From Shigella phage ESh28: DNA of 64,000 bases. Each line of letters begins with the position of its first letter. Position 1 is the first letter of the stretch. The position numbers and the translations under genes were made by a program. Positions 35,004-42,807 of the stretch are shown in pieces. The stretch is from sequence record ON528738; one strand, given 5' to 3'. The notes under the pieces were generated by a model. That model did no database searches. It was not told the origin of the DNA and saw nothing but the letters and a program-made list of their open reading frames with translations.

Positions 35004-35200
35004 TGAAATTCTTTTTAGGTCAAACTGTTGAATTAAAGGGAGTTGGTATACCTGGATTAATTTCTAAGGTTCTACCTCCATTTAAATGGAGTGGTGTTCA
35101 AATAAAAGAGGCTTATATTGTTTCCTGGGTAGATGGAAATGAAGACCTTCGTATGGGTGATGAATTATCTCCTATTTACGGATTAAAGGAATTAGTATGA
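35003..35200 (+). CDS. hypothetical protein (65 aa)
   Basis: ATG overlapping upstream stop. Confidence 0.4.
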   Translation: MKFFLGQTVELKGVGIPGLISKVLPPFKWSGVQIKEAYIVSWVDGNEDLRMGDELSPIYGLKELV

Positions 35201-35403
35201 ATATAATTAATAAGATTTTTGGAATTCAGTACATTAAGGTCACATATAAAGTAACAGATAAAAATCCATATACTGATGAACATGAAGAACCACAAGTTAA
35301 GTCTATTATATTAGAAAAGGACCCTAACTGGCCAGTTGAATTTCGTCTTCCTTGCTATGGTCATTGGGCTGATGTTGAAATTATAAGTATTGAAAATGCC
35401 TGA
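35197..35403 (+). CDS. hypothetical protein (68 aa)
   Basis: ATG overlapping upstream stop. Confidence 0.4.
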   Translation: MNIINKIFGIQYIKVTYKVTDKNPYTDEHEEPQVKSIILEKDPNWPVEFRLPCYGHWADVEIISIENA

Positions 35404-35854
35404 GTTAGAGATTAGAAGCAATTTTAGATGGCCATCGTGTGCATTAAGTAATTTCGCCCAATGGCCTTTTGTTATGGATGGTATCCAATTTGGAGGTCTT
35501 GAAGGATTTCTCCAAGGATGTAAGGTGAAAAATGTTGAACAGCAACGTCGTGTATTTGGGTTATCCGGGCTTGCCGCCCAACAAGCTGGAAGGTCTTATG
35601 CTAGAGCTCAGGACCGTGGGACCCTCTTCTGGCTCGGAGTTCCGTTTTCAAGATACTCTCCAGCGTGGAAAGAATTATACACAAATGCGTATTTTGAGGC
35701 AGCGATTCAAAACAAGGGCTTTCGTGATGCATTACTAGCCTCGAAAGGAAAAGTTTTGAAGCATAGCATGGCTAGTGGTCTAACAAAAGATGATACAATA
35801 CTAACCGAAGCTGAATTTATTGATGTGTTAAACCTATTAAGAGACTCTCTATGA
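35396..35854 (+). CDS. NADAR (YbiA-like, DUF1768) family protein, 30.3 position
   Basis: 152 aa from ATG 35396; motif LSNFAQWPFVMDGIQF resembles E. coli YbiA FSNFAAWPIKVDGKTW; track start 35390 is TTG. Confidence 0.65.
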   Translation: MPELEIRSNFRWPSCALSNFAQWPFVMDGIQFGGLEGFLQGCKVKNVEQQRRVFGLSGLAAQQAGRSYARAQDRGTLFWLGVPFSRYSPAWKELYTNAYFEAAIQNKGFRDALLASKGKVLKHSMASGLTKDDTILTEAEFIDVLNLLRDSL

Positions 35855-36483
35855 AGCCTACTATTTTGACTGATATTGACGGGGTGTGTTTAAGCTGGCA
35901 ATCGGGCCTTCCTTATTTTGCCCAAAAATATAATCTTCCGTTGGAACATATTTTAAAAATGATTCAGGACGAAAAATTTATTTCTCCTGGTAAGCTCTTT
36001 AATTGCGATGAAGAACTTGGTGTTAAATTAATCGAAAAGTATAATCGTTCAGATTTTATTCGTTATTTGTCTCCATATAAAGATGCTCTATGTGTAATTA
36101 ACAAATTAAAAGAAGATTATAATTTTGTAGCTGTTACAGCATTGGGTGATTCTATTGACGCTCTGCTGAATCGTCAATTTAATTTGAATGCTCTTTTTCC
36201 TGGTGCCTTCTCAGAAGTATTGATGTGTGGTCATGATTCTTCAAAAGAAGAGTTGTTCAAAAAGGCAAAAGAGAAATATAACGTAATTTGTTATATTGAC
36301 GATCTCGCTCACCACTGCGATCACGCGAGTGAAATATTAAATGTTCCTGTTTATTGGATGGCTCGAGGAGAGCGTGACAATATTCCAAAAACTGCGCAGC
36401 GAGTTTATACATGGAATGATGTAGAGAATAAGCTTTTCCATCGAAGGAAAATAAAGAAAGTTTTGATAGTGAAAAAGTTATAA
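35851..36483 (+). CDS. HAD-superfamily hydrolase, probable 5'(3')-deoxyribonucleotidase-like (30.2 position)
   Basis: 210 aa; HAD motif I ILTDIDGV and motif IV ICYIDD; ATG overlaps upstream stop. Confidence 0.6.
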   Translation: MKPTILTDIDGVCLSWQSGLPYFAQKYNLPLEHILKMIQDEKFISPGKLFNCDEELGVKLIEKYNRSDFIRYLSPYKDALCVINKLKEDYNFVAVTALGDSIDALLNRQFNLNALFPGAFSEVLMCGHDSSKEELFKKAKEKYNVICYIDDLAHHCDHASEILNVPVYWMARGERDNIPKTAQRVYTWNDVENKLFHRRKIKKVLIVKKL

Positions 36484-36500
36484 AAGATGTAATTGAGAAG

Positions 36501-36686
36501 ATGATTAAAAACGATTCTTTTCCTTGGAACACTACCTGGAGAACTCCTGGATTTAATCCTTATAATCTATATCATCCATATCAGACGCATCCGTTTCAGA
36601 CATGGAACTATATTAAACCCGGTGGCATAGAGTATTTGTATAATAGACCTACTAGTGGTGATAATATTTTCCAAGGAGCATTCTAA
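36501..36686 (+). CDS. hypothetical protein (61 aa)
   Basis: ATG start; ORF from track. Confidence 0.35.
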   Translation: MIKNDSFPWNTTWRTPGFNPYNLYHPYQTHPFQTWNYIKPGGIEYLYNRPTSGDNIFQGAF

Positions 36687-38649: not shown

Positions 38650-40746
38650 ATGATGGAACTCATTACAGAATTATTTGACGAAGATACTACTCTTCCGATT
38701 ACAAACTTAAATCCAAAGAAGAAAATACCACAAATTTTTTCAGTTCATGTTGATGACGCAATTGAACAACCAGGCTTTCGTTTATGTACCTATACATCTG
38801 GAGGTGATACTAATCGCGATTTAAAGATGGGCGATAAAATGATGCATATTGTTCCTTTTACATTAACTGCTAAAGGTTCAATTGCTAAATTAAAAGGTCT
38901 TGGTCCAAGCCCAATTAATTATATCAATTCAGTTTTTACTGTTGCAATGCAAACAATGCGCCAGTATAAAATTGATGCTTGTATGCTTCGTATTCTTAAG
39001 TCTAAAACTGCTGGCCAAGCTCGACAAATTCAAGTTATTGCTGATAGACTTATCCGTAGTCGTTCAGGTGGCAGATACGTCCTTCTTAAGGAACTCTGGG
39101 ATTATGATAAAAAGTATGCATATATTCTTATACATCGCAAAAATGTATCACTAGAAGACATTCCAGGAGTTCCGGAAATTAGTACCGAGCTCTTTACTAA
39201 AGTTGAATCGAAGGTCGGTGATGTTTATATCAATAAAGATACTGGGGCTCAAGTAACTAAAAATGAGGCAATTGCAGCATCTATTGCACAAGAAAATGAT
39301 AAACGTTCTGACCAAGCTGTAATCGTTAAAGTTAAAATTTCACGTAGAGCAATTGCGCAAAGTCAATCATTGGAATCTTCTAGATTTGAAAGTGAATTAT
39401 TCCAGAAGTATGAATCTACCGCAGCTAATTTCAATAAACCTGCTACAGCTCCTTTAATTCCTGAAGCAGAAGAAATGAAGCTTGGAATTAATTCATTAGC
39501 TTCTAAAACTAAGGCAGCAAAAATTATTGCTGAAGGAACTGCAGATGAACTTCATTATGACTATAAATTCTTTTCAAAAAGTGAGGTTAATGAAGTTTCT
39601 GAAAAAATTAAAGATGTAATTCTTAATGCGATTAAAAATGAACCAACTACTTCAATAAAATGTTTAGAGAAATACGCAGCAGCTGTTAATCAATTATTTG
39701 AAGAATATAAAGATAACTGGCTTGATAAACATAATAAAACTCGTAAAGGACAGACAGATGAAGTCTGGGAAGAAATAACTAAAAATTCCTGGAACGCAGC
39801 AAAAACTAAATTCCTCAAACGAATGATTTATAGCTTTTCTGGAATTGGTGCAGGTCCAATGATTGATATTACTATTGCCCGTGATGGTTCTAAATATACT
39901 CCATCACAAAAGCGCGGCATTAGAGAGTATTGTGGTTCAGGATATACTGACATCAATAATCTTCTTTTAGGACGCTACAATCCAGAACGATATGATGTAA
40001 TGAGTGAAAAAGAAATTGAATCTGCTATAAATAACTTAGATTCAGCTTTTGAAAATGGTGACCGTATACCAGAAGGCATTACAGTTTATCGTGCTCAAAG
40101 TATGACTGCTCCTATATATGAAGCGTTAGTTAAAAATAAAGTGTTCTACTTCAGAAATTTTGTATCTACTTCTTTAACTCCTATCATTTTTGGACGTTTT
40201 GGAATCACACATGCTGGTATTGGTCTTTTAGAACCAGAAGCTCGCAATGAATTAACAGTTGATAAAAATGAAGAAGGAATAACTATTAATCCAAACGAAA
40301 TAAGAGCGTATAAAGAAAATCCTGAATACGTTAAAGTTCAAATAGGATGGGCAATTGATGGAGCTCATAAAGTTAATGTTGTATATCCAGGAAGTCTCGG
40401 AATAGCAACAGAAGCTGAAGTTATTCTACCGCGTGGATTGATGGTCAAAGTTAATAAAATAACTGATGCTTCTAATAATGACGGAACAACATCTAATAAT
40501 ACAAAACTCATTCAAGCTGAAGTTATGACCACGGAAGAGCTCACCGAATCGGTAATCTATGACGGAGACCATTTAATGGAAACCGGTGAAGTAGTTGCAA
40601 TGACAGGTGATATTGAAATAGACGACAGAGTTGACTTTGCATCATTTGTTTCATCAAATGTTAAACAGAAAGTAGAATCATCTCTTGGAATTATTGCGTC
40701 TTGCATAGATATTACAAACATGCCTTACAAGTTCGTTCAAGGATAA
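38650..40746 (+). CDS. alt: Alt ADP-ribosyltransferase (virion-packaged; modifies host RNA polymerase)
   Basis: 698 aa; ART-like R-S-E elements (YRAQ, FVSTSL, EAEVILPRG); late promoter TATAAATA 28 nt upstream. Confidence 0.8.
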   Translation: MMELITELFDEDTTLPITNLNPKKKIPQIFSVHVDDAIEQPGFRLCTYTSGGDTNRDLKMGDKMMHIVPFTLTAKGSIAKLKGLGPSPINYINSVFTVAMQTMRQYKIDACMLRILKSKTAGQARQIQVIADRLIRSRSGGRYVLLKELWDYDKKYAYILIHRKNVSLEDIPGVPEISTELFTKVESKVGDVYINKDTGAQVTKNEAIAASIAQENDKRSDQAVIVKVKISRRAIAQSQSLESSRFESELFQKYESTAANFNKPATAPLIPEAEEMKLGINSLASKTKAAKIIAEGTADELHYDYKFFSKSEVNEVSEKIKDVILNAIKNEPTTSIKCLEKYAAAVNQLFEEYKDNWLDKHNKTRKGQTDEVWEEITKNSWNAAKTKFLKRMIYSFSGIGAGPMIDITIARDGSKYTPSQKRGIREYCGSGYTDINNLLLGRYNPERYDVMSEKEIESAINNLDSAFENGDRIPEGITVYRAQSMTAPIYEALVKNKVFYFRNFVSTSLTPIIFGRFGITHAGIGLLEPEARNELTVDKNEEGITINPNEIRAYKENPEYVKVQIGWAIDGAHKVNVVYPGSLGIATEAEVILPRGLMVKVNKITDASNNDGTTSNNTKLIQAEVMTTEELTESVIYDGDHLMETGEVVAMTGDIEIDDRVDFASFVSSNVKQKVESSLGIIASCIDITNMPYKFVQG

Positions 40747-40749
40747 ATC

Positions 40750-42807
40750 ATGGAACTTATTACAGAATTATTTGACGGCGCTTCGGCGCCGGTTGTTAAC
40801 TTAAATCCTAAGCATAAAATACCACAAATTTTTGCTATTCAAGCCGGTGAAGAAAGCGTTCTTCCTGGATTTAGATTTTGTACATACACCTCTGGCGGTG
40901 ATACGAATAAAAACGTTAAGCCAGGCGACAAAATGATGCATATCGTAATGATAGGTGTTAATGAAAAATTATCATTAGTTAAGCTTAAAAACTTGGGTGG
41001 AAATCCAATTGGCGTCATTAATGCTGTTTTTGATACTGCTCTTCAAACAATGAAACAGTATAAAATTGATGCATGCCTATTCCGCGTACTAAAAAGTAAA
41101 ACAAATGGCGCTGCTCGTCAAATGCAAGTTATTGCTGACCGTTTAGTACGTACTAAAGGAGCAGGTCGATATGTTCTTTTAAAGGAAATCTGGGACTATG
41201 ATAAGAAATATGCATATATTATGGTTTACCGTAAAAATGCCAATTTAGAAGACATTCCAGGTGTACCTCCTATTTCAACTGAGTTATTCACAAAAGTTGA
41301 ATCGAAAGTCGGTGATGTTTATGTAGATGTTAAAACAGGTAATGCTGTTCCTAAAGCTGTTGCTGTTGCTGCTTCTATTGCTTTAGAAAATGATAAGCGC
41401 ACGGACCAAGCTGTTATTCAGAAAACTAAAATTAGTCGTCGATTAGCAGCACAAGCTCAATATTCTACTGTTGATGCTTCACTTCAGGGTGATAGCTTCG
41501 CTGCTAAGAAATATCAAGAGTTTGAATCTAAAGTTCCGGTGTATAAAGCAGAAGGACCAATGAACTCTGGCGTTATTCAAATTGGTTCAAACTTCAGCAA
41601 AGGAGCTATAGGCGGTATGAGAAGCGCTTCTCGTTTTAAATCTAGTGATTATGAACTCGAAAGCTTCCGAAATCATATTGCATTAGCCCATGCACGTTTA
41701 CGTGATCCATCTATCAAGTTACAGAGCGATATAACATATCAAGGTTCTCAAGAATATTTAAAGAATAAAGAATTCTTTGATTATAAGACTGATAAAATTT
41801 TAAGCGATCTTGCTGATATTAATATTTCTAATAGCTTTGATGTTATTAAGAAAATTATCAATGATTTGGTTAAAGGTTCTAAAGCTACGCCAGATGAAAA
41901 GACAGCTATTATTCAATTTGTCATGAATGGCATTTATAAATTGATTAATGAATCTGCTGCTCAGGCATATGAATACGCAAGCACTGAAGTAACTCCAAAA
42001 GGATTAACTCAAGCTGAATCTGATGTAATTGAAGATTATTGTGCAGATTCATATGTTGAAATGAACTCGTTCCTTTTGGGTAAACCAGATTCTACCCGTG
42101 AAGAATATATGGAACGAGCTATTAAACATATTGAGACGCTTGATTCTGCATTCGCTAAAGGTTCAGTTCTTCCTCCAGGAACTACACTTTACCGTGGACA
42201 AGAAGTTACCTTTAAAACTTTGCGTCATAACATTGAAAATAAAATGTTCTATTTCAAGAACTTCGTATCGACATCACTTAAACCAAATATATTCGGTGAG
42301 CATGGTAAAAACTATATGGCTCTAGATGATTCCGGCGCAGTATTTTCTGGCGAAGGAGAAGGTTCTGTTGATGCAGAAGATTTGATGCATATGGGTAGTC
42401 ATTCTACATATGCTAATGAAGATGCTGAAACTAGCGTGGGTATGGTAATTAAAGGAGCTGAGCGAATTAAAGTTATCGTTCCGGGTCATTTATCAGGATT
42501 TCCATCAGAAGCTGAAGTTATTCTACCGCGTGGAATTTTACTGAAGATTAATAAAGTAAGTACTTACTTTATGAAAGAAACTGCTTATAACAAGTATCTA
42601 ATCGAAGGTACAATCGTTCCTCCTTCTGAACAATTAGAGGAATCAGTATATGATGGCGACCATCTAATGGAAACTGGTGAAGTTCGTCCAATGACTGGAT
42701 TTAATCAATTCCTTGTCGAAGAATCAAAAGAAGAGGAAAACGAAGTTTCTCAAATCTTAGCTTCTTTGGTTAACATTAACGGAATGTCTAAAAAGTTCAA
42801 AATGTAG
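40750..42807 (+). CDS. Alt-like ADP-ribosyltransferase paralogue (second tandem copy)
   Basis: 685 aa; N-terminal ~230 aa roughly two-thirds identical to upstream Alt by eye; diverged middle; same ART elements (YRGQ, FVSTSL, EAEVILPRG). Confidence 0.75.
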   Translation: MELITELFDGASAPVVNLNPKHKIPQIFAIQAGEESVLPGFRFCTYTSGGDTNKNVKPGDKMMHIVMIGVNEKLSLVKLKNLGGNPIGVINAVFDTALQTMKQYKIDACLFRVLKSKTNGAARQMQVIADRLVRTKGAGRYVLLKEIWDYDKKYAYIMVYRKNANLEDIPGVPPISTELFTKVESKVGDVYVDVKTGNAVPKAVAVAASIALENDKRTDQAVIQKTKISRRLAAQAQYSTVDASLQGDSFAAKKYQEFESKVPVYKAEGPMNSGVIQIGSNFSKGAIGGMRSASRFKSSDYELESFRNHIALAHARLRDPSIKLQSDITYQGSQEYLKNKEFFDYKTDKILSDLADINISNSFDVIKKIINDLVKGSKATPDEKTAIIQFVMNGIYKLINESAAQAYEYASTEVTPKGLTQAESDVIEDYCADSYVEMNSFLLGKPDSTREEYMERAIKHIETLDSAFAKGSVLPPGTTLYRGQEVTFKTLRHNIENKMFYFKNFVSTSLKPNIFGEHGKNYMALDDSGAVFSGEGEGSVDAEDLMHMGSHSTYANEDAETSVGMVIKGAERIKVIVPGHLSGFPSEAEVILPRGILLKINKVSTYFMKETAYNKYLIEGTIVPPSEQLEESVYDGDHLMETGEVRPMTGFNQFLVEESKEEENEVSQILASLVNINGMSKKFKM

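Follow-up and report, generated by a model that had tools for sequence, protein, structure and literature searches.

The 30.x-ligase-alt locus of ESh28

The window analysed here comprises 64,000 nucleotides of Shigella phage ESh28 DNA (sequence record ON528738), and gene 30.3, or adfN, lies on its + strand at 35396..35854. The open reading frame starts with ATG at 35396 and ends with TGA at 35852-35854, encoding 152 amino acids that form a phage-type NADAR domain without extensions. The automatic ORF list opens the frame two codons earlier, with a TTG at 35390 that yields 154 amino acids; the ATG is the annotated start of the 459-nt gene 30.3 in T4, RB51, ECML-363 and PNJ-9. Upstream lies the open reading frame of gene 30.4 (35197..35403, + strand, 68 aa, phrog_2042), found in the same arrangement in T4 and RB51. 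Its stop overlaps the start of adfN by 8 nt (35396-35403), which is consistent with translational coupling of the two genes. At the other end, the stop of adfN and the start of gene 30.2 overlap in ATGA at 35851-35854. The overlaps at both ends represent the tight packing that is typical for T4 early-gene clusters.

The gene order in the window is 30.9-30.8-30.7-30.6-30.5-30.4-30.3-30.2-30.1-30 (DNA ligase, 487 aa)-alt.1-alt. This order is the same in T4 and RB51, with the T4 record reading it from the other strand, and the position of adfN between 30.4 and 30.2, upstream of the DNA ligase gene, is common to T4, RB51 and ECML-363. The 3.5 kb around adfN are 98.6% identical to Escherichia phage ECML-363 and 97.5–98.5% identical to the other Tequatrovirus genomes listed, RB51, wV7 and RB14 among them; at least 80% of this 3.5-kb query is covered in 491 phage records. 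From the identity to ECML-363 and other Tequatrovirus genomes and the gene order shared with T4 and RB51, we conclude that the gene is 30.3. Promoter and terminator matches between 32.5 and 38.5 kb were no more common than in shuffled sequence. The neighbouring genes 30.4 and 30.2 do not encode Pfam domains, and no darT1 gene is present beside adfN.

An internal out-of-frame ORF, 30.3', is located within adfN at 35532-35738 and is annotated in the T4 record as an internal translation product. It encodes 68 aa here versus 75 aa in T4, because the nucleotide change behind L114 of AdfN (Q114 in T4) introduces a TAG in the 30.3' frame. The shortening suggests that the C-terminus of 30.3' may be only weakly constrained.

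Gene 30.2 (35851..36686, + strand), delineated from its ORFs and an alignment with RB51 and T4, is split. Owing to the loss of one nucleotide from a T-run at approximately 36434-36437, the 278-aa reading frame is broken into ORFs of 210 and 61 aa. The run consists of four T here, five in RB51 and six in T4, and 30.2 is intact, with 837 nt, in T4, RB51 and ECML-363, the closest relative. An exact match to the four-T variant was absent from IMG/VR, and the frameshift reflects either an error in sequencing the homopolymer or a mutation private to ESh28. If it is real, ESh28 constitutes a natural test of gp30.2 as a partner of AdfN. The first-pass annotation had described this neighbour as HAD-type and nucleotidase-like. 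A DxDG motif (DIDGV) and a weak match to a PHROG polynucleotide kinase family (E=0.0023) agree with that description, but gp30.2 had no matches in Pfam (E≤10), NCBIfam or PDB sequences, and the putative HAD assignment is unproven. The single-sequence AlphaFold2 model of gp30.2 had a pLDDT of 37 and was unusable.

Further downstream, an Alt-type ADP-ribosyltransferase of 698 aa (38650..40746, PF03496) starts approximately 2.8 kb from adfN. It is directly followed by a second full-length Alt-like ADP-ribosyltransferase of 685 aa (40750..42807; PF03496, E=5.8e-20), in agreement with the earlier description of an Alt pair at about 3 kb. The second gene is annotated as alt.-2 in RB51, and only short remnants, alt.-1 and alt.-2, are kept in T4. 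To our knowledge, there is no known functional link between the Alt pair and AdfN.

Protein family, fold and active site

The window protein matches Pfam family PF08010 (Phage_30_3) over the complete profile (positions 1-138 of 138), with E=3.5e-70 and 234.6 bits against a cut-off of 36, and it also matches phrog_652. It is identical to T4 gp30.3, of equal length, at 148 of 152 residues (97%) without gaps, and 100% identical to a protein of phage ECO4. The substitutions relative to T4 are P2 for S, V53 for I, L114 for Q and M125 for I, and all four are located outside the positions at which the family alignment shows conservation of 90% or more. Homologues were detected by tblastn in 1,510 of 50,697 phage records, 1,504 of them spanning at least 80% of the protein, and their hosts include Escherichia, Klebsiella, Shigella, Aeromonas, Acinetobacter and Vibrio, among others. 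A protein-database search yielded 114 homologues down to approximately 36% identity, all with PF08010, several of which have been named ‘YbiA (DUF1768 family)’ by JGI. The window protein did not match any PADLOC or NCBIfam model.

The first-pass annotation had recognized a NADAR-family hydrolase and had pointed to the Pfam family DUF1768/NADAR. Scanning the window protein returned PF08010 rather than NADAR, with no match to PF08719 at E≤1, so that the Pfam check proposed there would have seemed negative, and a single-sequence search of PDB sequences gave just a spurious match (3rjz, E=0.29). When 68 members of PF08010 were scanned singly, 25 did match PF08719, with a best E-value of 1.5e-7, which places PF08010 within NADAR as a divergent subfamily. 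The best match of the family profile among PDB sequences was E. coli YbiA (2b3w, E=0.02), over the active-site motif, where the profile alignment sets LSNF..F..DG....EGFLQ..K on YbiA FSNFAAWPIKVDGKTWPTSEHYFQAQKF. At the level of sequence profiles, the tie of the window protein to NADAR is transitive, not direct. These matches and the conserved catalytic residues bear out the assignment as a NADAR hydrolase. The peptide that had been quoted in its favour, LSNFAQWPFVMDGIQF, corresponds to residues 17-32 of the window protein, and the YbiA string quoted alongside it, FSNFAAWPIKVDGKTW, is true YbiA sequence (PDB 2b3w) that is aligned by HMMER to the same stretch of the family profile. The NADAR alpha+beta fold, with a helical core flanked by small beta-hairpins, is present in the window protein.

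The active-site motif of NADAR proteins, LSNF...F..DG....(L/M)EGFLQ..K, spans residues 17-43 (35444..35524, + strand), as defined by conservation and by the YbiA alignment. It contains Glu36 (codon 35501-35503, + strand), which is invariant in the 68 homologues, and Lys43 (codon 35522-35524, + strand), which is conserved in at least 90% of them. Also invariant are S18, N19, F20, G37, F38, Q40, T134, L136, T137 and His123 (codon 35762..35764, + strand), which ends the predicted strand 120-122. The position of His123 is that of the catalytic Glu (YbiA/NADAR) or Asp (DarG1) of the last beta-strand (PMC11125620, PMC12945103). Suskiewicz and colleagues used this residue to distinguish the gp30.3 proteins, or ‘phage NADARs’ (His), from YbiA-type proteins (Glu) and DarT1-linked NADARs (Asp) (Toxins 2024, PMC11125620). 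Judged by its sequence, the window protein belongs to the published His-type class, which is the phage/gp30.3 NADAR subfamily and not the YbiA subfamily. The earlier label ‘YbiA-like’ is thus appropriate for NADAR membership but not for the subfamily, as the invariant His123 replaces the Glu that defines YbiA.

A C-terminal alpha-helix is formed by residues 138-151 (35807..35848, + strand) in the AlphaFold2 model, with high confidence. Residues 126-152 are identical to T4, and the helix region is intact here. This helix is needed for full AdfN activity and is lost in the frameshift allele of RB69 (PMC11825919). Because E36, K43 and H123 are kept, the helix is intact and the differences from T4 lie off the conserved positions, the window allele can be predicted with high confidence to be a functional adfN, with the activity and phenotype in ESh28 that would be expected by homology.

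Several observations concern relatives of the protein. A gp30.3 homologue in Klebsiella phage Roth17 (PQ657791.1 65848-66285) seems to be misannotated, being labelled ‘anti-CBASS protein acb1’. In the T4-like phages SV76, vB_Eco_NR1, UGJNEcP4 and vB_EcoM-RPN226, the gp30.3 products (P0007, P0016, P0017 and P0074) are only 86-109 aa long, in some cases with fusions to other Pfam families, and may represent natural loss-of-function alleles resembling that of RB69, or assembly frameshifts. Among the tblastn matches of 144 residues, that of PNJ-9 does not reflect a truncated allele: the PNJ-9 gene has the full 459 nt and its last 8 residues diverge. For the distant homologues P0087 and P0020, PADLOC gave weak matches to the candidate-defence model PDC-M42C (E=3.4e-5 and 0.021), which hints at a NADAR-like protein as a component of a candidate defence system. 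Another gp30.3-type NADAR, P0053 (approximately 38% identical), is encoded at 6001-6468 of L003, an ENA contig of 308,439 bp, and also on L004 and L005. The 308-kb contig is dense in small unannotated ORFs, has NUDIX and Thg1-like genes near P0053, and looks like a jumbo phage. A conserved linkage to 30.2 in distant relatives, considered on the basis of the 308-kb and 30-kb P0053 contigs, was not supported by this single example: the downstream gene encodes a 254-aa protein unlike T4 gp30.2 (E=1.2).

Predicted counter-defence against DarTG1 and alternative functions

T4 gp30.3 has been identified as AdfN (anti-DarT factor NADAR), a guanine-specific DNA ADP-ribosylglycohydrolase that is necessary and sufficient for DarTG1 resistance (Johannesman et al., Nat Commun 2025, PMC11825919). 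Chimeras of RB69 with T2 or T4 that escaped DarTG1 had all gained the 3' part of 30.3, adfN deletion mutants of T4 and T2 no longer formed plaques on DarTG1 cells, and ectopic adfN restored the plaquing of RB69 on DarTG1 (PMC11825919). The function of T4 AdfN was lowered by E36A, K43A and C-terminal truncation; purified AdfN stripped ADP-ribose from DarT1-modified DNA, which the E36A variant did not, and DarTG2 was unaffected by AdfN (PMC11825919). In vitro, the T4 enzyme hydrolysed guanosine-ADPr and not thymidine-ADPr (PMC11125620). A 2026 study of representatives of all NADAR families, including the T4 phage NADAR, found that every one hydrolysed G-ADPr; its summary table lists C-ADPr removal solely for the NADAR and YbiA families, not for phage NADAR, which consists of the core domain alone (PMC12945103). 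Independent confirmation came from a T4 transposon screen, in which insertions in 30.3/adfN were lost specifically on DarTG1 hosts and the adfN knockout had no phenotype on defence-free K-12 (10.1101/2025.11.20.689424). The adfN gene and its fold, mechanism and phenotype are thus already known from work published in 2023-2025.

The gene in the window is very probably the orthologue of T4 30.3/adfN, encoding a minimal single-domain NADAR that acts as an anti-DarTG1 enzyme. Its earlier designation as a candidate anti-DarT1 anti-defence gene is in line with the role demonstrated for the 97%-identical T4 AdfN (PMC11825919; 10.1101/2025.11.20.689424). Directly established here are the identity to T4 AdfN, the NADAR fold, and the integrity of the C-terminal helix and of the catalytic residues E36, K43 and H123. 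That the ESh28 protein is enzymatically active and counteracts DarTG1 would follow by homology from the T4 and T2 experiments, and nothing in its sequence speaks against this reading. In a DarTG1 host infected by the phage, DarT1 would ADP-ribosylate the N2 of guanine in phage DNA and stall replication. AdfN, probably expressed early from the run of overlapping + strand 30.x genes upstream of the DNA ligase gene, would hydrolyse the N-glycosidic bond between ADP-ribose and the guanine N2 amino group in DNA, and the removal of the adduct would allow phage replication to go on. AdfN would thereby act as an orphan homologue and mimic of the type IV antitoxin DarG1, without binding the toxin itself. 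Since adfN is intact here, ESh28 is predicted to be resistant to DarTG1, unlike RB69.

The action of AdfN appears to depend on the infection context. T4 AdfN has no effect on DarT1 toxicity in uninfected E. coli (PMC11125620, PMC11825919). Its rescue of non-T-even phages is weak, independently of DNA hydroxymethylation or glucosylation, and an additional T-even factor has been proposed for its effect (PMC11825919). The absence of an effect in uninfected cells, together with the weak help to non-T-even phages, indicates that the picture of a free enzyme cleaning DNA is incomplete and that AdfN requires some T-even factor or context. The first-pass annotation had proposed co-expression with DarT1, with a lack of rescue counting against the gene. 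As T4 AdfN does not rescue uninfected E. coli from DarT1 and is nevertheless a genuine counter-defence factor, such an outcome would lead to a wrong refutation. Knockout plating on DarTG1 hosts, also proposed there, is a valid test of the anti-DarT1 role, unlike DarT1 co-expression. That the His-variant AdfN clade is no stand-alone enzyme but needs a T-even partner, or has a second natural substrate, seems unlikely to us; if true, the conserved and tight early-gene linkage of adfN with 30.4 and 30.2, near the Alt enzymes, would be a functional module.

Other functions were weighed against the removal of ADP-ribose from DarT1-modified phage DNA. The protein might be a YbiA-type housekeeping N-glycosidase, acting on reactive riboflavin-pathway intermediates or in nucleotide metabolism, and not in anti-defence. 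We regard this as highly improbable, as the Glu of the last strand that defines YbiA is replaced by the invariant His123 in the gp30.3 family (class rule from PMC11125620), the published phylogeny places the gp30.3 NADARs nearest to DarG1-type NADARs and not to YbiA (PMC11825919), and T4 adfN is dispensable on K-12 but essential on DarTG1 hosts. Alternatively, the main substrates may lie beyond DarT1-modified phage DNA, in the form of soluble immune signals derived from ADP-ribose, RNA carrying ADP-ribose, or adducts left by the Alt/Mod ADP-ribosyltransferases that the phage itself encodes nearby, with DarTG1 resistance as only one facet. In T4-like phages, NADAR genes are expressed early and are co-located and co-expressed with ADP-ribosyltransferases (Iyer et al. 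2022, PMC9503650), and in the window the two Alt paralogues begin approximately 2.8 kb and 4.9 kb downstream. This reading would also accommodate the removal of G-ADPr from RNA by all NADAR families (earlier work cited by PMC12945103) and the T-even context required for full AdfN activity (PMC11825919). Such a substrate, however, has not been demonstrated for gp30.3, and the annotation of Alt is that of a protein ADP-ribosyltransferase acting on RNA polymerase, with a chemistry unlike the guanine-N2 linkage cut by NADARs. Moreover, phage NADAR is not listed for C-ADPr (PMC12945103), T-ADPr is not hydrolysed (PMC11125620), and the adfN knockout lacks a phenotype on defence-free K-12 (10.1101/2025.11.20.689424), and we consider a main substrate of this kind very unlikely.

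The partial rescue that the E36A and K43A mutants of T4 AdfN retain (PMC11825919) leaves room for a non-catalytic contribution, and another phage NADAR has been reported to be active without enzymatic activity (PMC11825919). These findings would fit a stoichiometric block of DarT1 by toxin binding, as by AdfA and AdfB, with catalysis being secondary. The probability of such a mechanism is nonetheless close to nil in our estimation: a bacterial two-hybrid assay detected no association between AdfN and DarT1, ADP-ribose was removed in vitro by the wild type but not by E36A, and a simple binder should neutralise DarT1 in uninfected cells, which AdfN cannot do (PMC11825919). The preferred reading remains that AdfN acts as a DNA ADP-ribosylglycohydrolase during infection. 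The main value of our analysis is the correct annotation of the gene, which helps host-range prediction; it adds no new biology.

Relation to known NADAR systems

The closest known counterpart is T4 gp30.3/AdfN (PF08010), which has the same length, overlaps with 30.4 and 30.2, synteny, E36, K43, H123 and C-terminal helix. It differs in four residues, and T4 gene 30.2 is intact, whereas that of ESh28 is frameshifted. RB69, a related phage of the Tevenvirinae, has the same gene at the same locus, but as a natural loss-of-function allele (PMC11825919). A T insertion at nt 411 has removed the last 15 residues and the C-terminal helix, and RB69 is sensitive to DarTG1 (PMC11825919); the ESh28 allele is full length and in frame.

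More distant are E. coli YbiA (PDB 2b3w) and Phytophthora NADAR (PDB 8bau), which share just 18–21% identity with the phage protein and whose last strand carries Glu at the position of the phage His. Their context is housekeeping or unknown, and their families remove C-ADPr, for which phage NADAR is not listed (PMC12945103). AdfN(Bas32) and AdfN(Bas60) of T5-like and Vequintavirinae phages are likewise orphan phage NADARs that counter DarTG1 (PMC11825919). They belong to other NADAR clades (archaeal-like and bacterial non-YbiA), are missed by BLAST and PSI-BLAST searches from T4 AdfN, and neutralise DarT1 without infection (PMC11825919). The DarG1 NADAR (Geobacter/Trichlorobacter lovleyi, PDB 8bat; BC4488 family) has an N-terminal extension, carries Asp at the position of His123 and adjoins darT1. 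DarG1 neutralises DarT1 in uninfected cells, whereas the phage protein is core-only, an orphan, and fully active only during T-even infection (PMC11825919, PMC12945103). The window protein is an orphan antitoxin homologue rather than a component of a toxin–antitoxin system.
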